Source: Alphaproteobacteria bacterium (lineage in GTDB: Bacteria; Pseudomonadota; Alphaproteobacteria; Rs-D84). From it: DNA of 64,000 nt. The DNA lies in assembly GCA_031555055.1 (NCBI GenBank), contig JAVBUT010000002.1, positions 142,418 to 206,417 on the forward strand. Reading direction: 5' to 3'. A program made the translations under genes and the position numbers. The notes under the pieces are model-generated. The model was not told the DNA's origin. It did no database searches and was given only the letters and a program-made list of their open reading frames with translations. The number at the start of each line of letters is the position of its first letter. The stretch's first letter is position 1. Below, in pieces: positions 16,467 through 45,563 of the stretch.

Positions 16467-16503
16467 AGTTTCCATCACCCGCGAAGGCCGGCGTCCCTTG
16501 TAT
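16467..16503 (-). promoter_or_regulatory. CAAGGGA + hairpin leader motif (xth)
   Basis: Minus strand TACAAGGGA-CGCCGGCCTTCGCGGGTG-ATGGAAACT-ATG. Confidence 0.6.
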
Positions 16504-16633
16504 ATATTTGAGTTGCATATGACATTCTAGTGGTTTATAATAATTCTGTCCAATATAAACACAATTAATTTTTTGTGGGTGTTTATGATACTCATCAAAA
16601 TATAACCGATCCCGTGTTAAACGGGCAAAAACG

Positions 16634-16666
16634 CAAGGGACACCCGTATGCGCGGGTGATGATAAA
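16634..16666 (+). promoter_or_regulatory. CAAGGGA + hairpin leader motif (acyl-CoA synthetase)
   Basis: CAAGGGA-CACCCGT ATGC GCGGGTG-ATGATAAA-ATG. Confidence 0.65.
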
Positions 16667-18247
16667 ATGAATATGTATCAGTTATTAGAAAAGACCGCCG
16701 GAAATCATCCGAAGAATCTTTTCCTGGTTCGCGAAGGTGTTGATTACACCAAATTCGTCGAACTGGTTAAAAAACGTGCCGCGACCATGAATGCCGCCGG
16801 TGTTAAAAAGGGCGACGTGATCGGTATTCTGGCGCACAATATCCCGGAATTTCCAATCAGCCTGTTCGCGATATGGTATCTGGGGGCGAAATGCCTGTTG
16901 CTGGACACTAATCTGACGCCTTTTGAATACAACAATATGGCCGAATTGACCGAATGCAAAATGGTTTTTGCAGAAAAGTCATTCTTTTTCAAAACCGACA
17001 AGTTCAAGTTTATGGACATAACCGCCAAAGACGGCGCGGTCAATCCTGATCTGAAACCGGCCGTTGTCGAATCAACGGAAGTCGCGACTTTGTCGTTTAC
17101 ATCCGGATCGACCGGCGTACCAAAGATCGTACCGCTGACGCACTTTAATCTGACGGAATGCGCGAATTCGCTGGAAGACATGGCCCAGTGGATACACACC
17201 GGTGACATTCTGTATGGATTCCTGCCGATGTATCATGTGTTCGGTTTTGCAATCGAAATATTGGCATCGCTGCATTTCGGCGCGGGCGTATTGCTGCAAG
17301 CGACGATCAATCCGAAAGACATCATGGATGACTTTAAGAATTTCCGTCCCCAGATAATCCCGGCCGTGCCGCGCCTGTGGGAAGTATTCCGCAACAAGAT
17401 CATCGATAATATCAAGGCCCAGAAAAAATGGTGGCTGGCGTCGTTTGTTCTGAAATATGGAAACGTTTTAAAGAAAATCGGGTTGGGCGGATTGGTCAAG
17501 AAAGTACAAACACCGGTTCTGGCCGCATTCGGTGGGCGCGCACGTCTGCTGGTTGCCGGTGGCGCCGCGACCAAGCCAGAGGTTGAAACATTCTATGAAC
17601 GTTTGGGCTTGACCTTTATCCAGGGTTACGGATTGACCGAAACAGTTGGACCAATCTGTATATCGAAACCGAACAAGCACAGATTCCCGTTCTCGTTCGG
17701 CGGGCCGATCACAAACAACGAATGCGAAATCCGCGACAAGAACGAAGACGGTGTCGGTGTTCTGTGGGTGCGCGGACACAACGTGTTCGGCGGATACCTG
17801 AACAATCCGGCCGTCAATGCCGAAGTGATCGACGATCGCGGGTTCTTTAATACCGGCGACTTGGTCACGATGGATAAAAATGGCGAGCTGCACTTTGCGG
17901 GCCGTAAAAAGCAGGTCATTGTTTTGGATTCCGGCAAAAACGTTTATCCGGACGAACTGGAAGGTATGTTCATAACAATCCCAGGTGTCAAAAACGTCGC
18001 AGTGTTCGAGCATAAGGTCAAAGGCAAAACAGTATCCTATGCGGTGTTCAGCGTCGATGACAAAATGACAATGGAAGAATTGTCCGCAGCCGTAGCAGTG
18101 GCGAACAAAAAAGTCGCCAGCTATAAATGGGTGACACATTTTGCGATGACGACGGACGATCTGCCACTGACATCTACGCAAAAGGTAAAACATCATGCGG
18201 TTCGTCAGAATCTGATTGATGGAAAATATCCATTACGTAAAGAATAA
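16667..18247 (+). CDS. Long-chain fatty acid--CoA ligase (AMP-binding family)
   Basis: FTSGSTGVPK, LPMYHVFG, QGYGLTET, FNTGDL, GRKK..IVL.SGKNVYP. Confidence 0.9.
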   Translation: MNMYQLLEKTAGNHPKNLFLVREGVDYTKFVELVKKRAATMNAAGVKKGDVIGILAHNIPEFPISLFAIWYLGAKCLLLDTNLTPFEYNNMAELTECKMVFAEKSFFFKTDKFKFMDITAKDGAVNPDLKPAVVESTEVATLSFTSGSTGVPKIVPLTHFNLTECANSLEDMAQWIHTGDILYGFLPMYHVFGFAIEILASLHFGAGVLLQATINPKDIMDDFKNFRPQIIPAVPRLWEVFRNKIIDNIKAQKKWWLASFVLKYGNVLKKIGLGGLVKKVQTPVLAAFGGRARLLVAGGAATKPEVETFYERLGLTFIQGYGLTETVGPICISKPNKHRFPFSFGGPITNNECEIRDKNEDGVGVLWVRGHNVFGGYLNNPAVNAEVIDDRGFFNTGDLVTMDKNGELHFAGRKKQVIVLDSGKNVYPDELEGMFITIPGVKNVAVFEHKVKGKTVSYAVFSVDDKMTMEELSAAVAVANKKVASYKWVTHFAMTTDDLPLTSTQKVKHHAVRQNLIDGKYPLRKE

Positions 18248-18276
18248 GAAACCGGCCGTTTGGCCGGTTTCTTTTT
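18248..18276. terminator. Intrinsic terminator
   Basis: gaaaccggcc gttt ggccggtttc ttttt. Confidence 0.8.
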
Positions 18277-18280
18277 AAAT

Positions 18281-18410
18281 GTAGGGGCGCATATTTGCGC
18301 CCTCTTTATCAACTGGATTGCTTCGCATTCGTTCGCAATGACGGACTTGTTTTTAATAGCTATTAATTAAGGGCGCAAATATGCGCCCCTAGTATCGACT
18401 AATGACTATT
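18281..18410. repeat. Composite palindromic element: inverted GTAG-type REP pair enclosing a GGATTGCTTCG...CGCAATGAC hairpin
   Basis: gtaggggcgcatatttgcgccct ... ctggattgcttcgcattcgttcgcaatgacgg ... agggcgcaaatatgcgcccctag; sister copy at 59185-59313. Confidence 0.85.
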
Positions 18411-18412
18411 CT

Positions 18413-19720
18413 TTATTTCCCCAGACACAGTTGGCCGAATGTGGCGTCCATGACTTCGGTCGCGTTGATCGCGCCCAGAATCATGCCGATGCCGTCGGCG
18501 GCGGCCCGCACGTGTTCTGCAAAAATGTCGTGATTGTCGGCCGCGATTGCAGACTTTAATTCATTCGCCGCGTCAATTAATAATACGCGTGTACGTTCGT
18601 TAATTGCGATGTCGCTTTCAGTGCCGTCCAATTTTTCGTGGATTTTTTGTTTGATCAGTTCCATCAGTTCATCAATGCCGGCGCCGGTAAGGGCAGATAC
18701 GTAAAGGTTCGAGGTTTGAGGTTTGAGGCCAGAGGTGTCCAATAAGTCGCATTTATTGATAATGACGATTTCATTGTTTTTATTACTGGTTCCTGATTCC
18801 TGATTGCTAAATACTTTAATAATCAAGTCGGCGTTAAGGATTTCGGCGTGTGTTTTCTCTATCCCGATTTTTTCAACCGGATCAATCGAATCGCGAATTC
18901 CAGCCGTATCGGATAAATTGATCAGGTATCCGTCGATGTCTAATTGGTGGCTTACCACGTCACGGGTGGTGCCCGGAATATCGGTTACAATTGCGCGAGA
19001 TTCGCCGACCAGACAATTGAACAGCGATGATTTGCCGACGTTTGTTTCACCGGTCAGAACAATATTAAATCCGCTGCGCACGGCGCGTGACGAGAAATAG
19101 CGGGAAAGCGCCGTATTTATTTCATTGTATAATTTTTGGGTTGACGCGATCAGTTTATCGCCGATGTTTGCCGGCAATTCGTCACTTGGGTAATCCAGGA
19201 TCGCCGCCGCATAGGCAGATATTTCGATCATCGCGCTGCGCCAGGCTTGGTACTTTTCAGAATCGGCGCCCATCATGGATTTTAGTGCGTGCGTGCGCTG
19301 GCGATCTGTGCGTGCATCCAGCAATGCGGCCAGTGCGTCGATTTCCACCAGATCCATTTTATTATTATAAAATGCGCGTTTTGAAAATTCGCCGGGTGTT
19401 GCCATGCGCATTCCGTGCCGGCGCAGTGTTTCAAAAATCTTTTGTATGACCGCCGGTGATCCGTGCGAATGTATTTCGATTACGTCTTGTCCGGTAAAGC
19501 TGCTTGGGCCTTGGAAATAAATCGCGACGCATTGGTCGATAGTCGCGCCGGCATCATCAATCAGATTGGTCAGGTATGCGTGTCGTGGCTGGATAAATCC
19601 GGCCAGACGGACCAGGTTTGAAAACACAGATTCCAGTTCGTCGCCCGATATGCGAATCACCGCAACGCCGGATTTCCCCGCGCCCGATGATAATGCAAAA
19701 ATCGTGTCAGTGTTTGTCAT
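18413..19720 (-). CDS. mnmE: tRNA modification GTPase MnmE
   Basis: DTIFALSSG, GVAVIRISG, SFTGQDVIE..HG, GETNVGKSSL, PGTTRD, DTAGIR, NKCD, C-terminal CLGK. Confidence 0.96.
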   Translation of the reverse strand: MTNTDTIFALSSGAGKSGVAVIRISGDELESVFSNLVRLAGFIQPRHAYLTNLIDDAGATIDQCVAIYFQGPSSFTGQDVIEIHSHGSPAVIQKIFETLRRHGMRMATPGEFSKRAFYNNKMDLVEIDALAALLDARTDRQRTHALKSMMGADSEKYQAWRSAMIEISAYAAAILDYPSDELPANIGDKLIASTQKLYNEINTALSRYFSSRAVRSGFNIVLTGETNVGKSSLFNCLVGESRAIVTDIPGTTRDVVSHQLDIDGYLINLSDTAGIRDSIDPVEKIGIEKTHAEILNADLIIKVFSNQESGTSNKNNEIVIINKCDLLDTSGLKPQTSNLYVSALTGAGIDELMELIKQKIHEKLDGTESDIAINERTRVLLIDAANELKSAIAADNHDIFAEHVRAAADGIGMILGAINATEVMDATFGQLCLGK

Positions 19721-19722
19721 TT

Positions 19723-20052
19723 TTAAGAATATAGTCTTATTAGTTCATTCATAAACATTATATCACGATACTGCGCATTTACCCTGGCCAGTTCTTTATC
19801 AGCCTCATTCCATTTGTTGTCTTGTTTCGTATAAAATCCAAGTAATGCATTTGTTAATGATATTTTTGTCTGAATATTCAATAAAATATTTTGTTCTTGT
19901 TTGTCCAAAAGCTTTTCATATTCATTTAACTTTATTTTAATCTTTGTAATCAATTCGGGGATTAAAACAGTTTCCATCTGCATATGTTCAAAATCAGCAT
20001 AACCCATAAACCATGCGCGAATATCTTTAAATATCATTTTATTTATTTTCAT
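19723..20052 (-). CDS. AT-rich hypothetical coiled-coil protein
   Basis: Overlaps ruvA stop and ends 2 bp before mnmE; fills the gap exactly. Confidence 0.65.
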   Translation of the reverse strand: MKINKMIFKDIRAWFMGYADFEHMQMETVLIPELITKIKIKLNEYEKLLDKQEQNILLNIQTKISLTNALLGFYTKQDNKWNEADKELARVNAQYRDIMFMNELIRLYS

Positions 20053-20609
20053 TTACTTATCGCCTTTAATGCCAGTGGCACCAGTTTTGTTACGTCTGTG
20101 TCAGGGTTTTCATTAACCAGTTTCTGGGCCATTTCGACAATGTCAATGCGTCTGTAACCCAATGATTCCAGCGCAGAGAGCAGGTCGGGCAATGGTGAAC
20201 TGGTTCCTGATTCCTGAAAACTTATTCCTGTTTTACCCTTTAATTCCACGATGATTTTTTCAGCGACTTTTTTACCAACGCCCGGCGCCGATGAAATCGT
20301 CTTGGCGTCGCCGGTTGCGATCGCACTCATCAATACATCTGGCTTTATGGTGGACAGAATCGCCATCGCAACCTTTGGCCCGACGCCGGACACAGTCGTC
20401 AACTGGTTGAACAGGTCCTGTTGCGCCAGTGATGTAAATCCGAACAGACGGATTGAATCTTCGCGCACGACGGTTTCAATCCACAGTGCGACAGTTGATT
20501 TTTGTGACAGATATTCTGGGCAAAAAACCTTGTACCCCACACTAGACACCATAACAATCACATATCCGTCGCCAATATGGTCAATAATTCCGTTCAGTTT
20601 TCCGATCAT
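20049..20609 (-). CDS. ruvA: Holliday junction branch migration protein RuvA
   Basis: MIGKLNG, VGYKV, VREDSIRLFGF, VSGVGPKVA, PGVGKKVAEKIIVELK, ALESLGY. Confidence 0.96.
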   Translation of the reverse strand: MIGKLNGIIDHIGDGYVIVMVSSVGYKVFCPEYLSQKSTVALWIETVVREDSIRLFGFTSLAQQDLFNQLTTVSGVGPKVAMAILSTIKPDVLMSAIATGDAKTISSAPGVGKKVAEKIIVELKGKTGISFQESGTSSPLPDLLSALESLGYRRIDIVEMAQKLVNENPDTDVTKLVPLALKAISK

Positions 20610-20735
20610 TTTTTGTCCACTTTTGCTTGTGGTCGTTATCCGACCGTCCTTTGTATTCAGTATAAAGCAAATAATTGCATAATCAAATTATTTGATTATA
20701 ATGGATCAATCTTAATATAAACGGAGTTTTTTACA

Positions 20736-21452
20736 ATGTCAGGACATTCAAAATGGAGCACGATCAAGCATAAAAAGGCGGCATTGGACGCCCAGCGTTC
20801 CGGCGAATTTACAAAGCTGGCGCGTGAAATCACTATGGCGGCGAAACTGGGCGATAAAAGTCCGGAAAACAATCCGCGCCTACGTCTGGCGATTCTGAAC
20901 GCGCGCAAGGCATCCATGCCGAACGATAATATCAAACGCGCAATAGACAAGGGCGCGGACAAAAATACCGAAAATTACGAATACGTCCGATACGAAGGAT
21001 ACGGGCCGGGATCGGTGCCGATTATTGTAGAGGCCTTGACCGACAATCCGCGTCGCACCGTGCCGGAAATCCGCAGCATATTCGCCAAAAATGGCGGAAA
21101 CATGGGCGAAGAAAATTCCGTATCGTTCCTGTTTACGCGCATGGGCCAGATTTTCTATGCGCCGATTGCCGGAAAGTCTGACGACGATATAACAATGGCT
21201 GTTATGGAGGCCGGTGGCGACGATGTCGAGACGTCAGAAGACGGTTTTATCGTAACAACCAAGCCGGATGATTTCATAGCCGTGCAAAAAGTATTATCGG
21301 ACAAGCTGGGTGAACCGGAAAAAGCAGAAATAACATGGATTCCAAATAATCCGGTCGATCTTGATGACGATACATATGCGCGCTTGGAAAAGCTGACTGA
21401 TCTGTTGTCCGAAAATGACGACGTGCAAAAGGTTATCACGGCAGCAGCATAG
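20736..21452 (+). CDS. yebC: YebC/PmpR family protein
   Basis: MSGHSKWSTIKHKK, NPRLRLA, YEGYGPG, LTDNPRRT, DDVQKV. Confidence 0.96.
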   Translation: MSGHSKWSTIKHKKAALDAQRSGEFTKLAREITMAAKLGDKSPENNPRLRLAILNARKASMPNDNIKRAIDKGADKNTENYEYVRYEGYGPGSVPIIVEALTDNPRRTVPEIRSIFAKNGGNMGEENSVSFLFTRMGQIFYAPIAGKSDDDITMAVMEAGGDDVETSEDGFIVTTKPDDFIAVQKVLSDKLGEPEKAEITWIPNNPVDLDDDTYARLEKLTDLLSENDDVQKVITAAA

Positions 21453-21473
21453 TAAAAAAAACAGGAGACAGGT

Positions 21474-21824
21474 ATGAAAATTATAGAAAAAGTTTCGTAT
21501 TTTATCGGACGCGGAAAACGCGCGCGCCAAGAAATGTACGAAGATCAGTATTATCAGGATATTAAAAACATCTTGGAAGCAAATCCGGACAATATAGACA
21601 AGAAAGATTTTGGTGGTTGTTATATTGTTTATTCATCAGTTATCAAGCAGGAAGGCAAACGTTTATATATATCGCCGTTCTATTCGTTAAGTCCCGGTCA
21701 TATTTTATTGAACGGAATGGATGTGTCATATAATGTATCGCAGGCATTTCCAAACAGAACATTCAAAATGGCGCAGGGCGCATATCAAAATAAATTCCAA
21801 CAAAATAAAGTGGCCGGAAAATAA
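21474..21824 (+). CDS. AT-rich hypothetical protein
   Basis: SD AGGAG; stop overlaps ruvC start (TAATG). Confidence 0.7.
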   Translation: MKIIEKVSYFIGRGKRARQEMYEDQYYQDIKNILEANPDNIDKKDFGGCYIVYSSVIKQEGKRLYISPFYSLSPGHILLNGMDVSYNVSQAFPNRTFKMAQGAYQNKFQQNKVAGK

Positions 21825-22312
21825 TGACGCGCATTCTTGGGATTGATCCCGGGCTTGTACACACTGGCTGGGCGATAATTGAATCGCAGGGATCATCACG
21901 TAAATATATCGCGTCGGGCGTAATCCTGCCGCCTGTCAAAGACGGGCTGGCTGTGCGACTGGCGTTTATTTTTAAAGAAATCACAAAAATTTGTGAAATG
22001 TTCGCGCCGGACGAATGCGCGATCGAAATTACTTTTTCAAACACGAATGCAAAGACAACATTGCTGTTGGGGCATGCGCGCGCAGCGGCAATGGTTGCAG
22101 TCGGGAATCGCGATATTCCAATATTTGAGTATGAACCGAACAAAATAAAAAAAGCAATCAGCGCCGCCGGTCACGCGGACAAAGATGCGGTTGCGAAAAT
22201 GGTAAAAATATTCCTGCCTGTGGCGAATCCAAAGACCGCGGACGAATCTGATGCGATTGCGATCGCGCTGGCACACAGCAATATTAATAAAATACTAGCG
22301 TATAGCAAATAG
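21824..22312 (+). CDS. ruvC: Holliday junction resolvase RuvC
   Basis: ILGIDPG...TGW, AIE, LGHAR, EYEP..IKK, GHADK, DESDAIAIA. Confidence 0.96.
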   Translation: MTRILGIDPGLVHTGWAIIESQGSSRKYIASGVILPPVKDGLAVRLAFIFKEITKICEMFAPDECAIEITFSNTNAKTTLLLGHARAAAMVAVGNRDIPIFEYEPNKIKKAISAAGHADKDAVAKMVKIFLPVANPKTADESDAIAIALAHSNINKILAYSK

Positions 22313-22352
22313 CGCTTAGCAATTAGCTTAGCCAATATTGGCTATACGCTAA
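22296..22352. repeat. TAGCG-type heptamer array with inverted arm; encodes the RuvC C-terminus and stop
   Basis: tagcgta tagcaaa tagcgct tagcaat tagc...gctatacgctaa. Confidence 0.75.
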
Positions 22353-22468
22353 TGTTTCTTTTGATTTACTTCCTATTAATATAATAGTACAATCATGATA
22401 TCCTGATAATTAGGATAAGAGGGGTCAAAATTCCCCATATAATATCTTTTAACATTAAGGAGTCCAAA

Positions 22469-22768
22469 ATGGTAAAAATGCCAAAAGATCAGATGGAATA
22501 CATCGATCACAAAATGTATCACAAACAGGCGACGTTGTTCCGCGCGTTCCTGATCAATTACGTATTGATATTGATTTACTGGCTGGCGATGATGATGCCG
22601 GGCTTTATAGAATGGGCAGCCGGTCTGACCCAAATGCCGCCGGCATTGCTGTACATCAATATGATCACATGGCTGGCGATCTGGAAGATTGCTGGCGCGG
22701 TATTGTTCCTGATACCGGCGTTGGCGATGTGGTGGGAACGCTGTTCAATGAAAAAGTATATGAAATAA
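22469..22768 (+). CDS. Small two-TM membrane protein (DUF6868-like)
   Basis: SD AAGGAG; FLINYVLILIYW...AIWKIAGAVLFLIPALA pattern. Confidence 0.75.
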   Translation: MVKMPKDQMEYIDHKMYHKQATLFRAFLINYVLILIYWLAMMMPGFIEWAAGLTQMPPALLYINMITWLAIWKIAGAVLFLIPALAMWWERCSMKKYMK

Positions 22769-22793
22769 AAAAACCGGCATTCGCCGGTTTTTT
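22767..22793. terminator. Bidirectional intrinsic terminator
   Basis: aaaaaaccggc attc gccggtttttt. Confidence 0.85.
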
Positions 22794-23562
22794 ATCGTGT
22801 TTTTTGCGGATGCATCGCCTGGGGCACATATTCGCCCAGACTGTGATTTTTATCCATAAATCCGGTGCCGTTCGGATTCAGACGATATGTTTTGGACATA
22901 TCTTTTTGTCCGGCTGATGTCGTGATAACTGTAAGTGCGCGCGGCTGTCCCATGTCGCCGCTGAACATGAATTGTTCTTTTGGTGCCTGGAATTTTTTTG
23001 CAAAAACGATGTTTCCGGTTTTGGTATTGGTCAGTACGACATAATTGTCTTTCCCAGGAACGGCGGCATTGATGTATGTGTAAACATCATCGTATGCGAC
23101 GTCGATCACGGCGCCTTTTAATTCTGCGGGATCAAATGCCGCGCCCATGGTTTTTATGTACGCGTCATATCTGCCGTCGGTTGTAAATGTTTGCGTCCCA
23201 TTCGGGTGTTTTTTTAACAAATCCGATTGGACCAGGAAATATTTTTTGCCTTTGCGGTCCTGGCGCCATGCCTGTTGGGATTTTTGATCTTCGAACTTGT
23301 CATACCAGAAAGAATCACCGTTTTTATAAAGATTCGTGACACGTACAAACAATTGCTTGTTTGCCGAAGACACATTCTTGATATTTACGACGTTTGATTC
23401 GTAAATCGTGTCCAGTTTGGCGGTTGTGGCCTTGGGCTTTGATTTTTGTTCGAAACCTTGTGCATTTGTCCGAACCGGCAAAAGCGAAGCCAGACCGACC
23501 AGAGTCGTAATCGCGGCCAGATTTCCGGCGCGGAACAGGTTTGTAAGATTTGTTTTTCTCAT
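22792..23562 (-). CDS. Hypothetical exported protein
   Basis: SD AAGAGG; MRKTNL...AAITTLVGLASLLPVRTNAQ signal-like N-terminus. Confidence 0.7.
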   Translation of the reverse strand: MRKTNLTNLFRAGNLAAITTLVGLASLLPVRTNAQGFEQKSKPKATTAKLDTIYESNVVNIKNVSSANKQLFVRVTNLYKNGDSFWYDKFEDQKSQQAWRQDRKGKKYFLVQSDLLKKHPNGTQTFTTDGRYDAYIKTMGAAFDPAELKGAVIDVAYDDVYTYINAAVPGKDNYVVLTNTKTGNIVFAKKFQAPKEQFMFSGDMGQPRALTVITTSAGQKDMSKTYRLNPNGTGFMDKNHSLGEYVPQAMHPQKTR

Positions 23563-23642
23563 GACTGCCTCTTTTGGTTTTAAAAGTTGCGTCCTACATA
23601 TATTAACTATACAACGGATTTTTGGCTGGGCCAGAAAAATCG

Positions 23643-23969: not shown

Positions 23970-24055
23970 TAGCGCATAGCATATAGCGCATAGCATATAG
24001 TTTATAGTGATATTGCTAATCCGCTAATCGCTATGCGCTATATGCTATGCGCTAA
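23969..24055. repeat. TAGCGCA heptamer array forming a perfect 26-bp inverted repeat
   Basis: TTAGCGCATAGCATATAGCGCATAGC (23969-23994) and its exact reverse complement (24030-24055). Confidence 0.92.
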
Positions 24056-24058
24056 TTG

Positions 24059-34176: not shown

Positions 34177-34178
34177 AA

Positions 34179-36990: not shown

Positions 36991-36991
36991 T

Positions 36992-37021
36992 AAAAAATCC
37001 CGGCCATTGACCGGGAGTTTT
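36992..37021. terminator. Intrinsic terminator
   Basis: tcccgg ccattga ccggga gtttt. Confidence 0.7.
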
Positions 37022-37040
37022 GTTTGCTTGGCTAGGACTA

Positions 37041-37186: not shown

Positions 37187-37197
37187 GGTATCGCGCT

Positions 37198-38484
37198 TTA
37201 TCGTTTTCCGCCGATCTTGGTGCGGCCGCCCATTAATGGTTGCAGTGCCGCCGGGATATTTACCGACCCGTCAGCATTCTGGTGGTTTTCCAAGACAAAC
37301 GCCAATGCGCGCGGCAGGGCGATCGCGGTATTGTTCAGTGTCGCGACGAACTTTACATCATTAGTGCCGTTTTCGCGATAGCGGGTATTGGTACGACGTG
37401 CCTGGAATTCGCCGATTGACGAGCAGCTGCCGGCTTCGCCCCATCTGCTTTGTCCTGGCATCCATACTTCGACATCGCAAGTTTTTACCTTGTTAAATCC
37501 CATGTCGCCGGTTGCCAGATCAATTGTGCGTTGCGGTAATTCTAAGGCTTCAACCGCGTCGCGCAAATTGTTCAGAATCAGATCGTACATTTCGTCACTC
37601 TGTTCCGGTTTGCAGAATACGTATTGTTCAACCTTGTGGAATTCGTGTATGCGGTACAGGCCGCGGGTGTCGCGTCCGGCGGCGCCGGCTTCTTTGCGAA
37701 AGCAATGCGACAGGCCAAAGTATTTTATCGGCAAAACAGATTCTGGCAGTATTTCCCCAGAATGCAGCGAATTCATCAGGATTTCAGATGTCCCGGCCAG
37801 ACAGCGGTCCGTGCCCGCCAGCATGAATACATCATTATCCATAACAGCAGGATCAGTGCCGATGAAATGTCCGGCATCCATAATTGTCTGCGGCTTGGTC
37901 ACGGCAGACACGCGCATAAATGTGAATCCCTTGTCGATCAGTCTGGCTGTGACATAGGACTGGATCGCGTAATCCAATTCGGCGGCTTCGCCCATCAGAT
38001 GATAAACGCGCGCACCACTGATTTCGGCAACCTTGTCGTTCATCCACCAGTTGTTCATATCCAGAATTTCCCAATGCGGTCGCGGCGTGAAATCGAATTC
38101 GCGGATTTTACCGCGTTCGCTAACCACAACGTTAAACGAATCGTCCGGACCGACCGGGGCGCTGGCTGACGGTATCTGGGGCACGCGATGCAGCAGATCG
38201 TTCAGTTGGGCTTCTTTGGTGGCCAGTTCCGCCATATCGCTGGCGATTTCCGTGGCGATTTCTTTTGATTTTGCGATCAGCGCCGGTCGTGCGTCACTGT
38301 CACTGCTACTTACACTGGCACTTATTTTATTTTTTTCCGCAGTCTTAGTTTGTGTAAGTGTTTTCAGTTCGCGAACACGCGCGTCCAGTGCCAATATGGC
38401 GTCAACGTGATCGTCAAAACCTTTGACCGCGCACGCGTTTTTTATAACATCAGGATTTTCGCGAATAAATTTTATATCCAGCAT
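37198..38484 (-). CDS. serS: Serine--tRNA ligase
   Basis: MLDIKFIREN, LAGTSE, CFRKEAGAAGRDTRGLYRIHEFHKVEQ, EAGSCS, FQARR, TLNNTA. Confidence 0.97.
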   Translation of the reverse strand: MLDIKFIRENPDVIKNACAVKGFDDHVDAILALDARVRELKTLTQTKTAEKNKISASVSSSDSDARPALIAKSKEIATEIASDMAELATKEAQLNDLLHRVPQIPSASAPVGPDDSFNVVVSERGKIREFDFTPRPHWEILDMNNWWMNDKVAEISGARVYHLMGEAAELDYAIQSYVTARLIDKGFTFMRVSAVTKPQTIMDAGHFIGTDPAVMDNDVFMLAGTDRCLAGTSEILMNSLHSGEILPESVLPIKYFGLSHCFRKEAGAAGRDTRGLYRIHEFHKVEQYVFCKPEQSDEMYDLILNNLRDAVEALELPQRTIDLATGDMGFNKVKTCDVEVWMPGQSRWGEAGSCSSIGEFQARRTNTRYRENGTNDVKFVATLNNTAIALPRALAFVLENHQNADGSVNIPAALQPLMGGRTKIGGKR

Positions 38485-38498
38485 AATTTGTACCTTTA

Positions 38499-38526
38499 TA
38501 GTGTCAGTGACAGTGTTAGTGTCAGT
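38499..38526. repeat. Hexamer (AGTGTC/AGTGAC) array upstream of serS
   Basis: tagtgtc agtgac agtgtt agtgtc agt; complementary tract inside serS at 38294-38321; similar array at 49765-49792. Confidence 0.7.
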
Positions 38527-38704
38527 ATATTACTTTGTTAATTATAGATGTGTGCGACGTAAATCGCAAATGAAAGTTATATCCCCTGCGGGGATGAGGA
38601 AAATGTGCAATGCGCAAAGTTCAAAGTGCAATTGTTTTTCATAGTAAATGGATTATAAACATTTATAATTTAAAAATCAATTATTTCATTGAACATTGCG
38701 CATT

Positions 38705-39241
38705 TTAAGCGGCGACGGCTTTTTCTTCGACCGCCATTTCGTCGTCAAACAAGGCAGGCTGGGCCATGACGCGTTCAAAGCTTTTTACAAACAGATAATC
38801 CGACAAACGGTTCAAATACTGGATAATCGGGGCCAATGCCATGCCATAGCGTTCGATTTCAGGCAGTTCGCGTTCGGCCTCCATCATTTCGACGACCCGA
38901 CGTTCCGCGCGGCGGCATATCGCACGCGCCAGTGAAACATAGCCTTTGGGATTAACAAAAAACGGGGGGATAGAGTTGTTATGTGTGGAAATATAATCTT
39001 CCAATTGCCAGATTTGTTGCGCGATACGGCGTTCGTCGACAGTTTTGAAATAAAAATATCCCATCAGTTCCGACAAGAATGTCTGGACACCGTCAAACTT
39101 GTCCGCGGCCAGACCCAGCGCGCACGAAAGTTCGTCCAATGTGCCCTGGATTTCGATTACAGGATGCGTCTTGCTGGCGATCCGGTTAGGATTCAGCTGG
39201 GTCATTCCTGTATCGCCTGCCTTGGTTGTAATCTGTGCCAT
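38705..39241 (-). CDS. pduO: ATP:cob(I)alamin adenosyltransferase (PduO type)
   Basis: ITTKAGDTGMT, GTLDELS, ARAICRRAERR, YLNRLSDYLF. Confidence 0.9.
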   Translation of the reverse strand: MAQITTKAGDTGMTQLNPNRIASKTHPVIEIQGTLDELSCALGLAADKFDGVQTFLSELMGYFYFKTVDERRIAQQIWQLEDYISTHNNSIPPFFVNPKGYVSLARAICRRAERRVVEMMEAERELPEIERYGMALAPIIQYLNRLSDYLFVKSFERVMAQPALFDDEMAVEEKAVAA

Positions 39242-39350
39242 GGTAAAAATACTCCGTATTTTTTTTTAAATGTGCAATTATTGTGCGCGTTCCGCGCGAC
39301 TTTATTTAATTGCACTTTGAACATTACACATTGATATAACGGCAAAGCCA

Positions 39351-41216
39351 TTATATCAGTTCGCATCCCCCGGCCGCGCATGCGGCGTCCTGGCCGAAAT
39401 TCACAAAGTTTTGTTCTTCGCGGATATTGTCCAGATTGAATTCGCGGTGTTTGCCGGCGAACTCCTTGTATACATCTTCATTTGTGTCTTCGAACGGCGC
39501 CTGTTGGTATGACGCGTCGGAATAGGGCAGCAATGAAATGCCGGTGTAATGTTCGCGGTTTTCCCACATCCATTCGCGCACTTCGTCCCATTCGTGATTC
39601 TTGACGTTGCATGTGCAAGACACGTTGTTATAGTTGTCACCACGAACATGTCCCGGCTTTACCCAGTTTTCAAACATGTATTTCACACGGTCCAGGAATT
39701 CGATCGCGGTTTCAGACCGGCGTGTCACGGCCCCTTCGGGTGCGCGCATGACCAGCGACAGTACACCATTCTTTTCCGGTTTCATAACATCGTCTTCGAT
39801 CAGGTCCGGGAAATTTTCCGACAGATATGTATAGATCGGTTCCATCTTGTTTATGCGCAGACGACGGATGTAATGCTTGGCATGCCACGGATGAACGCCG
39901 CTGGATGTGCCCAAGACCAATGCGCCCGTGCCATCCGGTTTAATATTCGTGATACGGTCCGCCGGATTGATCCCGATCAGCTTTGCGGTTTCAATGTTTG
40001 CTTTCTTTGCGATCTCGGCCGCTTTTTTAAAATCCAGTTTGGATAAATCCGGGTGTGATGCCAGACCCGTCACCGATACGCCGACCAGCGATTGTCTTTC
40101 TGCGTTTTCACGCCACTGTGGGTGGATATATTTCAGATCGGTATATGACGCCTGCAACGTGCCCAAGACAGAAGCATAATATACGCGTTCTTCCAGATCG
40201 GCCTGGTCTGCGACGTCGCCGACATTCACAGATGTCAGGTTGCAGAAAGACCGTGATGGCATAGAAATTTCCGCGCACGGATTGATCACCCATTCCGGAT
40301 TGTTTGTCCAGATAAAGCCTGGTTCGCCGGCCTCGCTCTTTTTGCAGGCCGCATACACCGCGTCGAATTCTTCCTTGGTTGTTGTCGCACGGTCGAATTG
40401 TACGGAAATGTTGGCCAGCGCGCGTTGTGGGTTTTCTTTCCACCATTCGCCTTGCTTGGCGGTCAGCATTTCGTTGTCGTCTTTGTCGAACAGACAGATC
40501 ATGGCGGACCGGCGCACACCACCGGACAGCACTGCGTCAGAGATAAAGCAACATATGTCGAAACAATCGACGGATGTTAATCTTTTTTCGCCGTCTGTGA
40601 TTTTGCGGTCCAACAATTTTTTGACACTGGTTAAGGCTTCGCGTAAAGGTTCCGGACCAGGCGCCGGTGCCATGGACGATCTGATCAGCGCACCTTTTGG
40701 TCTGATCAGCGACAGGTCAAACTCAATATCATCGCCGGTCACGAAATATGCGTCCATTAATACTTTGATACAGTCTGCCCAGCCTTCGATAGAATCTTCT
40801 GGTTGGAATGTGACGGTCTTGCCGGTTCTGGCGACCATTTCCGGCAATTTGTCGATAAATATGTGGCGAATAGAAAATCCGACGCCGCATCCGCATAATA
40901 ATAAATAGAACAGATCGGAAAAGTCGCGCAATTCGCTGATCCCGATGGCGGAACAGTTGTAAATACGATTGTGGTTTCGCAGAATGCCGTCACCACCAAA
41001 CTGCATAGAGCGGCCAGACGGGAGAATCTTGCGGTCGGCCATGAATGTGTATGTTTTTTCAATCAAATCACGGATATGCGGGAATCTGGAAATATGCATA
41101 TTCTTGTTCCGCATCACTGTTTCGTCCCAAGTTTCGCGGCGTTTTAAATCCGGCATATACTTGGAATATTTCATATAATATGTCAAATCAGATAAAAGTT
41201 TCAGTGATTCGTTCAT
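39351..41216 (-). CDS. nrdJ: Class II adenosylcobalamin-dependent ribonucleotide reductase (monomeric RTPR-like)
   Basis: RRETW.E, LPSGR, YNCS, GCGVGFS, DSIEGWAD, GGVRRSA, NPCAEI, FCNL, IKPDG, SSGVHP, YQQAPFE, C-terminal CAAGGC; next to pduO. Confidence 0.92.
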   Translation of the reverse strand: MNESLKLLSDLTYYMKYSKYMPDLKRRETWDETVMRNKNMHISRFPHIRDLIEKTYTFMADRKILPSGRSMQFGGDGILRNHNRIYNCSAIGISELRDFSDLFYLLLCGCGVGFSIRHIFIDKLPEMVARTGKTVTFQPEDSIEGWADCIKVLMDAYFVTGDDIEFDLSLIRPKGALIRSSMAPAPGPEPLREALTSVKKLLDRKITDGEKRLTSVDCFDICCFISDAVLSGGVRRSAMICLFDKDDNEMLTAKQGEWWKENPQRALANISVQFDRATTTKEEFDAVYAACKKSEAGEPGFIWTNNPEWVINPCAEISMPSRSFCNLTSVNVGDVADQADLEERVYYASVLGTLQASYTDLKYIHPQWRENAERQSLVGVSVTGLASHPDLSKLDFKKAAEIAKKANIETAKLIGINPADRITNIKPDGTGALVLGTSSGVHPWHAKHYIRRLRINKMEPIYTYLSENFPDLIEDDVMKPEKNGVLSLVMRAPEGAVTRRSETAIEFLDRVKYMFENWVKPGHVRGDNYNNVSCTCNVKNHEWDEVREWMWENREHYTGISLLPYSDASYQQAPFEDTNEDVYKEFAGKHREFNLDNIREEQNFVNFGQDAACAAGGCELI

Positions 41217-41298
41217 GATGTGGGCGCCCTTTGGATATAACCTGTGGTTTAAAGTGTTGTTTTTCCTGTTTTTTTGCGCCCCCTCTCCGAACACGTCA

Positions 41299-41347
41299 AA
41301 TCAACAGATAGTGGTCTTTTTTACCGTTATGACACAATATATAGTAT
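41299..41347. promoter_or_regulatory. Tandem NrdR boxes upstream of nrdJ
   Basis: acacaatatatagtat (41332-41347) and reverse complement ccactatctgttgatt (41299-41314) fit consensus acaCwAtATaTwGtg; 33 bp apart. Confidence 0.85.
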
Positions 41348-41639
41348 TTTGACCATATAAGGTAAAAAAAATTATATTAAAATTAATTATTTCTGCTTGA
41401 CTTAAAAATAGGGCCGTTTTCCGGGTATTTGACCGGGGTGCGAATCAATGAAATTTTGCACAAAAAACCGCTTTGTATTAATAATTTTAGGAATCGAATC
41501 GTTAAAAGACATATTTTGTTGCGAATATGATCCCAAATATAGTGTTCTTTGATTCGAAAAGCTTGATAAAAATATGCTTTTATATACATATTGATTGTGT
41601 TATGCTGGCGCGATCAAATAAGAAAACAAGGAACATATT

Positions 41640-42542
41640 ATGTACGACATTATTATACTGGGTTCGGGACCCGCAGGATTAACGGCCGCACTGTACGGCG
41701 CGCGTGCCGGAAAAAAGACTCTGGTTTTGGGTGGTGACAAATTGGGTGGCCAGACGGCTGGGATCGCGGTGCTGGAAAATTATCCGGGATTTAACGGAAC
41801 AGGTCAGGCGCTGTCCGAATTTATGAAAGCCCAGGCCGAATCCTTTGGCGCGGAAATAGTGTTCGAACTGGTCAAATCCGTATCCGGCAATCATGATGAC
41901 GGCTTTATTGTGACAAACACCGCCGGCAAGGAATACAAATCCAAAACGGTTATCATTGCAACCGGGGCGTCCCCACGCAAACTGGAAGTCGCCGGTGCGC
42001 GCGAACTGTTCGGCAAAGGCGTTTCATACTGTGCGACATGCGACGGATTCTTTTATAATGAAAAAACAGTATTGGTCATCGGCGGCGGAAATTCCGCGCT
42101 GAACGACGCGCTGTATCTGGCGGACATCGCAGAAACCGTAAAAATCATTTACCGCAAGCCGGCATTCACCAGGGCAGAGCAGGTTCTGATTGACCGTGTA
42201 TCCGCGCGTGAGAATATCGAATGCCTGTTCAATACGGATTTGAAAGCATTGGCGCTGAAACCAGACAGCGAAGAAAACGAACTGGTCGCGACAACATTGG
42301 ACGATAAGGAAATTGTTTGTCATGGCGTGTTTGTTGCGATCGGGCATGAAGCGAACACAGATTATTTGTCCGAAGATATCAAGCGCGACAGCATGGGTCG
42401 TTTGATCCCAAGCGCGTTGCCGCACGGTATGTTTGTCGCAGGCGACGTTCATTCTGACATCAAGATGCAGATTGCAACCGCAGTCGGCACCGGGTGCAGT
42501 GCAGCCATGGACGCGATTGCGCACATCAACACGCATAATTAA
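41640..42542 (+). CDS. trxB: Thioredoxin reductase
   Basis: GSGPAGLTAA, ENYPG, IIATG, GVSYCATCDG, GGGNSA, AGDV, AVGTG. Confidence 0.93.
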   Translation: MYDIIILGSGPAGLTAALYGARAGKKTLVLGGDKLGGQTAGIAVLENYPGFNGTGQALSEFMKAQAESFGAEIVFELVKSVSGNHDDGFIVTNTAGKEYKSKTVIIATGASPRKLEVAGARELFGKGVSYCATCDGFFYNEKTVLVIGGGNSALNDALYLADIAETVKIIYRKPAFTRAEQVLIDRVSARENIECLFNTDLKALALKPDSEENELVATTLDDKEIVCHGVFVAIGHEANTDYLSEDIKRDSMGRLIPSALPHGMFVAGDVHSDIKMQIATAVGTGCSAAMDAIAHINTHN

Positions 42543-42593
42543 TAGTCAATAGTCGTTAGTATATAGTAGGGGCGCAGTCCGAAACGCGCCCTT
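42541..42593. repeat. TAGTC heptamers leading into a GTAG-type REP
   Basis: aatagtc aatagtc gttagta tatagtaggggcgcagtccgaaacgcgccct; REP nearly identical (inverted) to 59276-59305. Confidence 0.75.
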
Positions 42594-42610
42594 TATTTAT
42601 TACGTTTAAT

Positions 42611-42775
42611 TTGATCTTGCGGTTCCCCTCCTGTGGAGGGGTGGTGGAGCTGTTATCGCGAGCCGGGGTGGTCTTATAAATTTAAAATCCGGGAAAGACC
42701 ACCCCGTCTTTTTTACTCACGATACCAGTTCCGTAAAAAATCCACCCCTCCACAGGAGGGGAACCGCAAGATCAA
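42611..42775. mobile_element. Non-coding MITE/REP-like element with perfect 34-bp terminal inverted repeats
   Basis: ttgatcttgcggttcccctcctgtggaggggtgg (42611-42644) and exact reverse complement (42742-42775); inner cggggtggtctt/aagaccaccccg. Confidence 0.8.
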
Positions 42776-42803
42776 GCGCTCGGCATAAAAAAATGAATAT
42801 GCG

Positions 42804-43307
42804 CTATTTTTTATAGTATTCTTTCAGTACCGAATATGCGGCGGTGATTTTTGCGAATTCGTCGTGCGATGTTTTTTTATTCTTGGCCGTGTCCGGATGG
42901 TGCTGTTTTGCCAATGCGCGGTACGCGACACCAATTTCGCGCCATGTGGCGGAAATACTGAGCCCCAAGGTTTTCAATGCGCCGACAACGCGTGATGGTG
43001 CGGCCGGTTTTGCACTGGCAGTTTGATCGAATTTTGAACGTCCTGTTATGAAATCATTGATGAAATTTACATAGTCCGCATTATCCGACGCGGCTTGCTT
43101 TTTATCTTTCATGGATGTGCCGAACACGCCGCGTTCCCAGTCGGCTTCGATTTCATCTGGCGTCATATCGGCATAAAAATTCCAGTTTTTATTATACTCG
43201 GCCGCGTGTTCCGGACAGAAATACCAATATTCGCACAAATCGCGCGATTTCGGCGCACGGCATGTTCCGGCTTTGGTACAATTTTTGTGGTCGCATTTTT
43301 TGATCAT
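42804..43307 (-). CDS. C-terminal J-domain protein with N-terminal Cys cluster
   Basis: CDHKNC...RAPKSR....YWYFCPEHAAEYNKNWNFY; HPD motif; typical alphaproteobacterial family. Confidence 0.9.
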   Translation of the reverse strand: MIKKCDHKNCTKAGTCRAPKSRDLCEYWYFCPEHAAEYNKNWNFYADMTPDEIEADWERGVFGTSMKDKKQAASDNADYVNFINDFITGRSKFDQTASAKPAAPSRVVGALKTLGLSISATWREIGVAYRALAKQHHPDTAKNKKTSHDEFAKITAAYSVLKEYYKK

Positions 43308-44191
43308 GATTTTGCCAGCGGATGATATTGTTCGACCGTGTCACGCAGCTTGTCTGGCAGGACATGGGTATAGATTTGTGTTGTCGATATGTCTTCGTGC
43401 CCCAGCATGGTCTGGATCGCGCGCAGATTCGCACCGCCCGCCAACAGATGTGATGCAAACGAATGGCGCAGTACGTGCGGACTGACGCGATTTGGTTCAA
43501 TCCCGGCCAGCACAGCGCACTTTTTCAGTATCTTGAAAAATCCGTCGCGGGTGATGTGTTTTGTTTTTCCAGTTCCAGGAAAAACAAAACCGTGATTCGT
43601 GATTCGTGATTCGTGATTCGGTTTATGTTTTTCGTTTTCTGGTTCCCGGATTTCCAACCATTTATTCAATGCATCTATCGCGCCGGCGTGCATCGGAACC
43701 ATGCGTTCTTTCGCGCCTTTGCCATGGATCAATAATTTATCGCCAAGTATCGCGGTCATCGGCAATTCGCACAGTTCCGATACGCGCAATCCGGATGCAT
43801 ACAACAGTTCGATCATGGCGCGCAGGCGCACGGATGTCCTGATGTCGCCGGCGGACGAGATCAGCAGTTCGATTTCATCGGCGCTTAGGAATTTCGGCAG
43901 TGTCTTTTGACGCTTTGGCAGTTCCAGCGTCGCCGCCGGATTTACGCGAATGATTTTTTCCAGCATTAGAAATTTATAAAACCCGCGCAGGGCGCTGGCC
44001 TTGCGGGCAATGCTGGACGCCTTGTCCGGCAGGTTTGATAAGTATTTTTGAACATCCGCTGCCGATGCCGACACCAGGTCGCCCAGCGAGTCCGCCGCAT
44101 GCGCCAGATCGCTGCCGTAACTTTCCAGTGTTGTTCGCGACCGGCCTTTTTCGGCGGATAATGCTTCTAAAAATATTTCGATATAGTTCAT
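43304..44191 (-). CDS. xerD: Tyrosine recombinase XerD
   Basis: AEKG.S..T..SY, LPKFLS, LLYASGLRVSEL, GKGAKERMVP, VSPHVLRHSFASHLL..GANLRAIQTMLGHEDISTTQIYTHV. Confidence 0.92.
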   Translation of the reverse strand: MNYIEIFLEALSAEKGRSRTTLESYGSDLAHAADSLGDLVSASAADVQKYLSNLPDKASSIARKASALRGFYKFLMLEKIIRVNPAATLELPKRQKTLPKFLSADEIELLISSAGDIRTSVRLRAMIELLYASGLRVSELCELPMTAILGDKLLIHGKGAKERMVPMHAGAIDALNKWLEIREPENEKHKPNHESRITNHGFVFPGTGKTKHITRDGFFKILKKCAVLAGIEPNRVSPHVLRHSFASHLLAGGANLRAIQTMLGHEDISTTQIYTHVLPDKLRDTVEQYHPLAKS

Positions 44192-44199
44192 TTAACAGA

Positions 44200-44328
44200 T
44201 TAACCCAGTACGACTTCGGTCATATGCTGGACCGGGGGAAACGATATGATCATCAGAACGACCAGTATCGCCACAATGGCCCATATGATTATTTGATTGC
44301 GTGCGGTGTGTTTTTTTCTTATTGGCAT
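44200..44328 (-). CDS. 42-aa single-TM small protein not in the ORF track
   Basis: Own translation MPIRKKHTARNQIIIWAIVAILVVLMIISFPPVQHMTEVVLG*; SD AAAGGA 6 nt before ATG; fills lptG-xerD gap. Confidence 0.7.
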   Translation of the reverse strand: MPIRKKHTARNQIIIWAIVAILVVLMIISFPPVQHMTEVVLG

Positions 44329-44362
44329 ACTAAATCCTTTTTATGCGTACAGCGTCCGATCC

Positions 44363-45412
44363 CTAGACAGTATCAAAGCTTGATATGAACACGCCGCTGG
44401 CGGCGATGATGATCAGTGGCGGCGCGATGATCGCCAACAGCGCCGGCAAGGCGCCGGTTGCCCCGAACGCGTTGAATATGTTTATTAAAAAATATAACGC
44501 AAAGCACGTGATGATTCCGGTGCCGAACTTTATCCCGAAACTATAGTTTCTGCGCTGGCGCGTTTGGGAAAACGCCACCCCCAGCACGGTCATCGCAATC
44601 ATGGTCAGCGGCATGAACAACAGTGTCCAAAACTGGACCATGTGTCCGCGTACCGGTACGCCGATCCGTTCCATTTTTTTGATAAACGACGGCAGCTCAT
44701 AGAACGATATTTGCGCCGGCTGCAGATATCTGTCCAGCACGGTTTTCGGATTCAGCAGGGTATCCGCGTGCCATGCGGCTGTTTTTCCAGACCCGTCGGG
44801 CGACCATATTTTCGCGCGCGTCGCGCCAAGGCCATTGTCGGACAGTTTAACCTCTGGCGCTTCTATGCGTGCGGCCAGCCTAAAGTCTGGATTCTGTTTG
44901 AATATGGTTGTGTTTTGGAAATAAAGTGCATCATCTTCTACACGGACATTTTCCGCGCGCAATGTTATTATGCCGGTCGCGGAACTCTCGCGCAGCCATA
45001 TGATGTCATCCACCAGCGTCAGCTTGTCCGCGGTTATGTTTTTTGATGACAAATTGACGGAATACGGATTTACAACCGCGGTTGCAATGATGCCGATCAG
45101 CGCCGCGCCGATCAGAAAAGGGCGGGCCGATTGATACGGTGACATACCTGCGCTGGATACGATTACACTCTCGGTTGATTTGGTCAGATTATACGACGCC
45201 AGCAAGGTTCCCATAAACACGGCCAGTGGCAAGAACAGCGGCATATATTCCAACAGGCGCACCCACGCGTCAGTGATCGCCATTCCGACCGTCGGGTTCG
45301 ACGGCAGACGTTCAACAAACGTGATTGCGAAAATTATGCCGCAAACGACCAGCATTACAGTGCCAAAGCCCTTGAAAAAGCGGCCCATTAAAAATTTTGT
45401 AAGAATTCGCAT
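44363..45412 (-). CDS. lptG: LPS export ABC transporter permease LptF/LptG family
   Basis: LPLAVF.G.L......K..E.VI..SAGMS, IWLRE, 3+3 TM layout. Confidence 0.85.
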   Translation of the reverse strand: MRILTKFLMGRFFKGFGTVMLVVCGIIFAITFVERLPSNPTVGMAITDAWVRLLEYMPLFLPLAVFMGTLLASYNLTKSTESVIVSSAGMSPYQSARPFLIGAALIGIIATAVVNPYSVNLSSKNITADKLTLVDDIIWLRESSATGIITLRAENVRVEDDALYFQNTTIFKQNPDFRLAARIEAPEVKLSDNGLGATRAKIWSPDGSGKTAAWHADTLLNPKTVLDRYLQPAQISFYELPSFIKKMERIGVPVRGHMVQFWTLLFMPLTMIAMTVLGVAFSQTRQRRNYSFGIKFGTGIITCFALYFLINIFNAFGATGALPALLAIIAPPLIIIAASGVFISSFDTV

Positions 45413-45472
45413 ATTTCACACCCGCGGCGGGTGTCCCTTGTTACGTTCCCGCGGCGGCGGGAATCCCTTGTA
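45413..45472 (-). promoter_or_regulatory. Two tandem CAAGGGA + hairpin leader motifs (lptG)
   Basis: Minus strand TACAAGGGA-TTCCCGC CGCC GCGGGAA-CGTAA-CAAGGG-ACACCCG CCG CGGGTGT-GAAAT-ATG. Confidence 0.7.
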
Positions 45473-45527
45473 TATTTACATTTCGCGTATTATAATCTTT
45501 AAAAGACAAAATGTAAAATATTAATAA

Positions 45528-45563
45528 TACAAGGGACATCCGCCGTCGCGGATGTGAAATGAT
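45528..45563 (+). promoter_or_regulatory. CAAGGGA + hairpin leader motif (greA)
   Basis: TACAAGGG-ACATCCGC CGTC GCGGATGT-GAAATGAT-ATG. Confidence 0.7.

Follow-up and report, generated by a model that had tools for sequence, protein, structure and literature searches.

Seven genes in the genome of a small gut alphaproteobacterium, four of them in the 64,000-nt stretch of DNA analysed here, begin directly downstream of a copy of one dispersed repeat, in which a short box resembling a Shine-Dalgarno (SD) sequence is followed by a GC-rich hairpin and then, after a few bases, by the start codon. The stretch, hereafter the window, is C8:142418-206417 of a genome that we call G000. We interpret these copies as repeat-derived split ribosome-binding sites (RBSs) of the type found at genes 38 and 25 of phage T4, and we consider it fairly probable, as an inference from the features described below, that the box is the SD sequence in use and that the hairpin is looped out between it and the AUG. 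Split RBSs have been described for a small number of phage and E. coli genes, the original studies of the T4 cases reportedly being those of Gold in 1988 and of Nivinskas and colleagues in 1999. According to this interpretation, a module of about 35 bp derived from a CGTC-tagged palindromic repeat would have inserted in sense orientation a few bases upstream of translation starts, at some of them displacing the native SD and at prfA replacing an overlapping stop/start junction. The complement of the repeat's tail would supply AAGGGA, which could pair with the 3' tail of the 16S rRNA, the stem-loop would fill the space between SD and AUG, and the CGTC head would have decayed to a short A-rich spacer. 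Most likely the hairpin stays folded on the mRNA and bulges out, which would place the box 5-10 nt from the AUG, and the modules probably now serve housekeeping genes as RBSs.

G000 comprises 888 kb in 10 contigs, has 47% GC and is an estimated ~77% complete; the close relatives of its acyl-CoA ligase gene are gut metagenome-assembled genomes (MAGs) labelled Candidatus Enterousia, Alphaproteobacteria or Rickettsiales. An earlier note on this DNA had described a shared box, GC hairpin, short spacer and ATG before xth, the acyl-CoA ligase gene, lptG (as two tandem copies) and greA, and we find the arrangement at all of them, running from ACAAGGGA through the hairpin and 6-9 nt to the ATG. The box ACAAGGGA occurs six times in the window against 0.76 expected, a count that none of 100 shuffles reached. 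On the minus strand, the xth module (16467-16501) consists of the box at 16494-16501, an 18-nt hairpin at 16476-16493 (CGCCGGC-CTTC-GCGGGTG, with one G-G mismatch) and a 9-nt spacer at 16467-16475 before the ATG at 16466-16464; it scores 41.5 bits with R1, a covariance model built from 12 aligned copies (11 from G000 and one from the relative L037), and its start is conserved among relatives. The ligase module (16634-16666, plus strand; 39.4 bits) has CAAGGGA at 16634-16640, with AAGGGA at 16635-16640, an 18-nt hairpin at 16641-16658 (CACCCGT-ATGC-GCGGGTG), an 8-nt spacer and the ATG at 16667. Two modules precede lptG in tandem on the minus strand, the proximal one (45413-45441) with ACAAGGGA at 45434-45441, a 15-nt hairpin at 45419-45433 (CACCCG-CCG-CGGGTG), a 6-nt spacer at 45413-45418 and the ATG at 45412-45410, and the distal one (45442-45476; ATATACAAGGGA; 44.8 bits) with its box at 45464-45471 and its hairpin at 45446-45463 (TTCCCGC-CGCC-GCGGGAA), followed by CGTA. 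The greA module (45524-45563, plus strand; ATAATACAAGGGA; 47 bits) has its box at 45529-45536, its hairpin at 45537-45554 (CATCCGC-CGTC-GCGGATG), a 9-nt spacer and the ATG at 45564. A weaker version that had been proposed before ruvA has a 5-bp stem followed by 22 nt to the ATG and gives no R1 match even at E<=10, and we rejected it as a member of the family.

Across G000, ten matches to R1 score 39-48 bits and the one that follows them scores 27 bits, which marks a discrete family; adding the lptG proximal copy, which is in the R1 alignment and has no separate R1 match, brings the total to 11 modules. Seven of these, all in sense orientation, stop 5-10 nt short of a start codon, at rsmE (6 nt), a TraG/VirD4-like gene (5 nt), prfA (10 nt), the ligase (8 nt), xth (9 nt), lptG (6 nt) and greA (9 nt), and six of the seven belong to three divergent gene pairs. 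Were the modules placed at random in intergenic DNA (840 crude ORF, that is open reading frame, calls and 100.8 kb), seven or more of 11 would lie this close to a start with a binomial p of ~1.8e-9, an enrichment of the kind that the earlier note's proposal requires. The identities of the genes at module-bearing loci were confirmed with NCBIfam. Orthologue N-termini back the annotated starts: MNMYQLLE of the ligase matches 80 relatives, MDKRP of greA stands against MEKKP or MDKKP in orthologues, MRILT of lptG has the same start in one relative, and both MKILTLN of xth and MII of prfA match their orthologues. At xth, GTG and ATG codons in frame with the gene also lie at the stem end.

Comparison of orthologous sites indicates that the modules are lineage-specific insertions. 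The hairpin is missing from the ligase leader in 79 of 80 orthologues, only L037 having AAGGGA and a hairpin there, and in about 75 of the 80 relatives the leader reads TTGCxxTCC, 17 nt, TATAAT, GTCCAATATAAAAACAACAAGGA, 9-10 nt, ATG. The same ancestral promoter and leader persist in the window at 16513-16559 on the plus strand (TTGCAT at 16513-16518, a 17-nt spacer, TATAAT at 16536-16541 and GTCCAATATAAA at 16548-16559), and because this unit, TTGCAT-17-TATAAT-GTCCAATATAAA, sits between the xth and ligase modules, these are separate insertions and not the ends of one element. The earlier note had read both divergent loci as inverted ends, which is true of the lptG distal and greA modules, which form one longer inverted pair (z -5.99), and not of xth and the ligase, which received their modules independently; the xth, ligase, prfA and lptG proximal modules are single. 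Relatives have AAAGGAATGCAAAC-ATG at xth, with an SD overlapping the ligase -35, whereas in the window some 45 nt including box and hairpin lie between ATGCAA and the ATG, and at both xth and the ligase the native SDs have been lost or displaced in G000. None of 12 relatives has a module in the greA/lptG spacer, and lptG there is without an evident SD.

The prfA site gives the clearest view of what an insertion brought with it. None of nine relatives has a module there, and in the same-genus relatives L290, L292 and L293 hisS and prfA overlap as ATGA, an arrangement of translational coupling. In G000 (C6:55790-55845) about 35 extra bases, TTAATACAAGGGA-hairpin-TAAA, stand 6 nt upstream of the ATG; a new TAA ends hisS early, the hisS-prfA gap is now 37 nt, and the native GCAAA is kept before the ATG. 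The SD-like box therefore arrived with the element; xth and lptG have a different SD or none in relatives, and AAGGGA is element-borne at all three genes. R1 matches occur in nine of 24 other genomes of the same family, in none of four same-genus genomes (89-98% complete) and in none of 16 that belong to the order's other families. Possible direct repeats flank two inserts, ATGCAAC / ATGGAAAC at xth and TAAAG at prfA, in comparisons with genomes that are only ~80% identical. The earlier note had also entertained a small element donating both outward promoters and RBSs; its second half agrees with a dispersed, lineage-specific repeat that carries the box, and its first half is not supported at xth and the ligase, where the promoter is ancestral. 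In relatives (L005 and most of L002-L081) the xth-ligase spacer is itself a very compact, interlocked divergent promoter of ~85 nt: the SD of xth (AAGGAA) and the -35 of the ligase (TTGCAT) overlap on opposite strands, and the ligase SD (ACAAGGA), read as its complement, gives xth a TTGT box resembling a -35.

The spacing of the modules matches the native one once the hairpin is discounted. From box to AUG the linear distance is 21-28 nt, and with the hairpin looped out it becomes 5, 6, 6, 8, 9, 9 and 10 nt, so that the geometry described in the earlier note, an SD too far away in linear sequence and normally placed in the folded mRNA, is borne out. The native distance in G000, from the end of AAGG to the start, peaks at 6-11 nt (202 genes), and the pentamers most strongly enriched directly before starts are AAAGG and AAGGA. 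The 16S gene of G000 is broken off at a contig end, and for duplex calculations we used the 3' end found in three relatives, GGATCACCTCCTTT. Against this tail the G000 box ACAAGGGA gives -4.6 kcal/mol, about like the native SDs ACAAGGAA (-5.2 kcal/mol) and AAAAGGAA (-5.8 kcal/mol), and the relatives' boxes that contain CAATGGA or CAAGAGA give -2.4 kcal/mol (ACAAUGGA) and -2.9 kcal/mol (ACAAGAGA). The 3' arms of the hairpins reach -4.3 to -10 kcal/mol with the same tail, only after stem melting, and since they would have to melt a stem first, the box is the cheaper pairing site in all seven modules.

These values recall T4, where the effective spacing has been shown experimentally to shrink from 22 to 5 nt at gene 38 and from 27 to 11 nt at gene 25 (PMC3014915; both split RBSs are also summarised in PMC7297116). 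The likeness lies in the distant SD (21-28 nt), the stable hairpin between it and the AUG and the effective distance of 5-10 nt. The T4 cases, however, are single, gene-specific and shown by mutagenesis, whereas here one repeat family would give SD and hairpin to at least seven unrelated cellular genes.

Several findings weigh against the split-RBS interpretation. As many as 541 of 838 crude gene calls have no AAGG within 60 nt of the start, so SD-independent initiation may be common in G000 and the box dispensable. Were the stem to melt, GGGTGAT, formed by the 3' arm and its flank at the ligase and xth, could outcompete the box, since its duplex with the 16S tail reaches -10 kcal/mol. At xth, translation may start instead at a GTG or an ATG that lies in frame at the stem end. 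Four modules stand away from starts, namely the distal one at lptG, a copy ~90 nt ahead of a lipoprotein gene, one on C5 in or near an ORF and one on C4 between two terminator-like hairpins. Transcription starts are guesses from consensus, promoter assignments being consensus matches or, for the ligase, conservation; at greA the box directly follows a weak site that resembles a plus-strand promoter, and if this site were used the box would be off the mRNA. A metatranscriptome run searched with 42001-49000 gave short, low-depth contigs, none of which, among those listed, covers a module; the run holds 24% of the sampled words of 40001-50000, and its nearest listed piece (45125-45332) lies inside lptG. 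Gene calls in G000 are simple ORF picks, and the genomes of the relatives, being related to one another, are not independent samples.

Alternatively, the modules could be tolerated selfish DNA with no RBS role, repeats that land in, or are not lost from, a compact genome's short AT-rich 5' regions, and translation would begin independently of an SD from the A-rich stretch or through the G-rich 3' arm as the stem breathes. This alternative, which we regard as unlikely but take seriously, would account for the many genes without AAGG and for the strength of GGGTGAT-type arms, and it draws further support from the same genus, where prfA (ATGA-coupled) and lptG are expressed without an SD of their own, and from the description of REPs (repetitive extragenic palindromes) of this class as non-coding and mostly at gene 3' ends (PMC3733652). 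It sits poorly with the presence of AAGGGA in 9 of 11 G000 modules, when headed copies in relatives, most of which have the non-SD sequences CAATGGA or CAAGAGA, include no start-proximal case. Nor does it explain why the effective spacing is a canonical 5-10 nt in all seven start-proximal modules, or why xth and the ligase have lost or displaced their native SDs, and use of the 3' arm would cost 7.5-10.5 kcal/mol in stem melting.

The hairpin itself is maintained by paired changes. The compensatory difference between CACCCG/CGGGTG and CATCCG/CGGATG and the G-U wobbles are as the earlier note had them, and covariation extends to 44 distinct copies from G000 and relatives, in which 99% of cells pair and six of the seven pairs have changed on both sides (45 cells), in an alignment whose fitting to the R1 structure favours pairing. 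None of 500 shuffles reaches these values, and no slid register comes near them. Covariation by itself cannot separate an RNA hairpin from a DNA hairpin; the sense strand has eight G-T wobbles against one C-A, a weak hint that the strand shown is under selection, as RNA or as single-stranded DNA. The predicted stabilities are -7.5 to -10.5 kcal/mol. At gathering score, Rfam finds two tRNAs only and no match to a module; at E<=1 there are sub-threshold matches to long-hairpin miRNA models and to WsnRNA46 (25.9 bits, cut-off 65.3), which we read as reflecting the inverted repeat and set aside as evidence of homology.

A stem conserved with covariation at the translation start of seven genes might also be a regulatory leader, either an RNA thermometer or an operator bound, as RNA or as DNA, by a protein such as a GIY-YIG Ssn-like one, through which the genes would be co-regulated, and SsnA does bind NTS hairpins specifically in single-stranded DNA (PMC11893778). 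We consider this very improbable. The genes (xth, acyl-CoA ligase, lptG, greA, rsmE, prfA and TraG-like) share no common pathway, and with no modules in the four same-genus genomes any regulon would have to be very young. In thermometers such as ROSE and fourU the SD or AUG lies in a weak stem, whereas here the GC-rich stem, very stable at 37 C, has AAGGGA on its 5' side and the AUG 5-10 nt beyond its 3' end. The small GIY-YIG ORF of G000 itself is without the C-terminal ~25 residues of its relatives, and the Rfam search at gathering score was blank for the modules. The dedicated thermometer or operator that the earlier note had offered is thus not supported.

By its sequence, the hairpin is a dispersed repeat and not a dedicated leader RNA, and more precisely a headless derivative of the CGTC-tagged REP class (dRS3/NTS, Ssn-related motif or SRM) rather than a canonical member of it. 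The consensus of the relatives' copies, (T)ATACAA[T/G]GGATTCCCGCCTGCGCGGGAATGAC(G), often in inverted pairs, fits the dRS3 pattern ATTCCC(N8)GGGAAT, is identical to the Nf1-targeted subtype ATTCCCRCCTRCGCGGRAAK (both described in PMC3898611) and is the reverse complement of NTS, CGTCATTCCCGCGMAVGCGGGAATCYRG (PMC11893778). Its dRS3/NTS match assigns the repeat to family CGTC-1 of the CGTC-tagged REPs of Di Nocera, De Gregorio and Rocco 2013 (PMC3733652). Among the matches listed, its 25-mer is found unchanged in more than 120 stretches, which come from many phyla. Like CGTC-1/dRS3/NTS/SRM repeats, the repeat seen here has the hairpin ATTCCCGC, 4-nt loop, GCGGGAAT, and is dispersed, multi-copy, often in head-to-head inverted pairs, sometimes intragenic and patchy across genomes and present in many phyla. 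ATTCCC(N8)GGGAAT is exact in two of the 11 modules (rsmE and C5), as a palindrome with an 8-bp stem from AT and a 4-nt loop; the stem TTCCCGC/GCGGGAA is present with at most one change in six, the other five being compensated variants (CACCCG, CATCCG, CCCCTG, CGCCGG), and the loop is 4 nt long in ten.

Head and tail set the G000 modules apart. TGAC, the complement of the CGTC head, follows the stem on the module strand in none of the 11 modules, so that neither a CGTC nor a TGTC head is found, whereas 24 of 37 copies in relatives are headed. In place of the CCA tail, which many relatives' copies have as CCA(TTG), G000 has CCC(TTGTAT), with the complement (ATACAA)GGG, so the tail complement is AAGGGA instead of TGG; where G000 has CAAGGGA, the headed copies of relatives mostly have CAATGGA or CAAGAGA. 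Loss of the head goes with position, since among 47 distinct copies nine of 23 headless ones lie 5-10 nt before a start, against none of 24 with the TGAC head (Fisher 6e-4). The nine are six from G000 and one each from G009, G021 and L037, a third MAG, each with the same order of box, hairpin and start, and the lptG proximal copy is a tenth. The class has been described mostly downstream of genes, unlike the seven of 11 G000 modules that lie 5-10 nt upstream of starts in sense orientation.

Function at the level of DNA is another way to read such a repeat, either as sites for a single-strand nuclease or for recombination or as a donor of a -35 element for the divergent promoter (the complement, TCCCTTGTAT, has TTGTAT), with proximity to starts as a by-product. 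On the greA side of the divergent locus there is indeed a TTGTAT (45468-45473) 17 nt upstream of a plus-strand TATAAT (45491-45496), the latter overlapping the -10 of the predicted lptG promoter (TTTACA-17-TATAAT, 45489-45517, minus strand; 11 of 12 matches in a consensus scan only), and a copy beside a GIY-YIG gene has TTGTAA-17-TATAAT. The long inverted repeat formed by the lptG distal and greA modules is of a piece with this, as is the modulation of natural transformation by NTS/Ssn in Neisseria (PMC11893778). We nevertheless hold it improbable that this is what keeps the modules at starts, given that the working -35 at xth/ligase (TTGCAT) is ancestral and apart from the module, that no good -10 is suitably spaced from it at the rsmE/TraG-like pair, and that the prfA module lies inside an operon junction with no divergent gene. 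Start-proximal copies moreover lack the CGTC head that marks canonical NTS/SRM repeats. The ATA before the box was set aside as a -10 hexamer, because xth, lptG and the ligase have better upstream promoters and prfA has no room for one; at greA it may still be one. At the lptG/greA locus, one contig of a DNA run (X1) agrees with the window to the right of 45515 only, its left part being unrelated sequence, and may stem from a variant strain or from a further copy of the repeat.

Having weighed these alternatives, we return to the split RBS and to what it would imply. A cellular parallel may be the Correia elements of Neisseria and other miniature repeats that carry expression signals to their neighbours, likewise small non-autonomous repeats in 5' regions that may change how the gene next to them is expressed. 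With a length of 100-155 bp and terminal repeats of their own, Correia elements are donors of promoters and processing sites, whereas the leader module is ~35 bp and would donate an RBS, promoter donation being unsupported at xth and the ligase. More broadly, and only tentatively, we suggest that a subfamily of Ssn-related repeats is a portable ribosome-binding cassette that carries its own SD, is inserted or retained at translation starts with its stem looped out, and can replace native RBSs and even translational coupling. If this were true, bacteria would use split RBSs naturally and repeatedly, essential genes would survive the replacement, and a repeat class of unexplained spread would gain a niche at gene 5' ends, a location undiscussed in the main texts of PMC3733652 and PMC11893778. 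One genome with at least seven natural cases from the same repeat, and with "empty" orthologous sites in relatives, would offer a series for testing how the 30S subunit accommodates hairpins, and would show a way for dRS3/NTS/SRM repeats to rewire gene starts, as in the change of the prfA ATGA overlap to SD plus hairpin. Headless copies supplying an SD box and a looped stem before at least seven genes are not found in the main texts of those two papers, where "Shine", "ribosome" and "start codon" are absent, and a literature search on REP or miniature repeats acting as SD or split RBS gave nothing relevant among its top results.

Chenal et al. 2025 (PMC11893778) connect Ssn-related motifs with small single-strand nucleases of the GIY-YIG type, the genes for which have the motifs at their flanks, and such genes accompany the repeat here as well. 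G009 and G006 each have a GIY-YIG gene of 102-112 aa enclosed by two inverted copies, and in G000 a putative Ssn-type GIY-YIG ORF (C8:21917-22147, 77 aa), the truncated one mentioned above, lies just downstream of a TGTC-tagged copy. A small GIY-YIG gene is present in eight of nine module-positive relatives against nine of 31 module-negative ones, although kinship makes the test overstate this association. At 80 loci with the 25-mer in other phyla, no family of neighbouring ORFs of at least 100 aa is shared by more than four, a cut-off that misses GIY-YIG proteins of ~100 aa. IS110 (PF01548) has no match in G000 or in four module-bearing relatives, and among these five genomes the Y1/RAYT family matches only in G000. 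This RAYT gene lies outside the window at C8:258794-259327 (L143:995-1528; NF047646 87 bits, Pfam Y1_Tnp 24.8 bits), and GTAG-tagged REPs in inverted orientation, GTAGCGCGACCTTG-loop-CAAGGTCGC, stand on either side of it. It is not an obvious partner of the modules, its flanking hairpin being a different, GTAG-tagged REP; the GTAG REP/RAYT system likewise consists of short hairpin repeats, from which the leader modules differ in having no GTAG tag.

G000 also holds a second family, of canonical TGTC-tagged dRS3/SRM repeats, TGTCATTCCCGC-GCAG-GCGGGAAT-AGGGTCTAT, at seven loci (C8:21855-22147, C2:2680-2800, C6:161574, C6:188751-188870, C8:32811, C8:49498 and C8:112711). Two of the seven are inverted pairs of ~135 bp, and no copy at any of them lies within 30 nt of a gene start. 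In G006 a copy of the repeat (L108:1501-1535, C1:106235-106269) forms part of an ORF close to its 5' end, where it is translated in frame as MDSRLRGN, and what follows resembles the N-terminus of what we take to be a DUF59/Fe-S assembly protein. Near a contig start of G000 (C1:60-115), ~12 G, CAG and 8 C form a -21 kcal/mol hairpin ~7 nt upstream of an in-frame ATG, which may be an assembly artefact. A third hairpin repeat of G000, GTAGGGGCGCA-N-TTGCGCCCC, is GTAG-tagged and REP-like (for example at C1:52765, C5:57713, C3:2540, C7:36549 and C8:22160) and sometimes stands 10-25 nt upstream of ORF starts.

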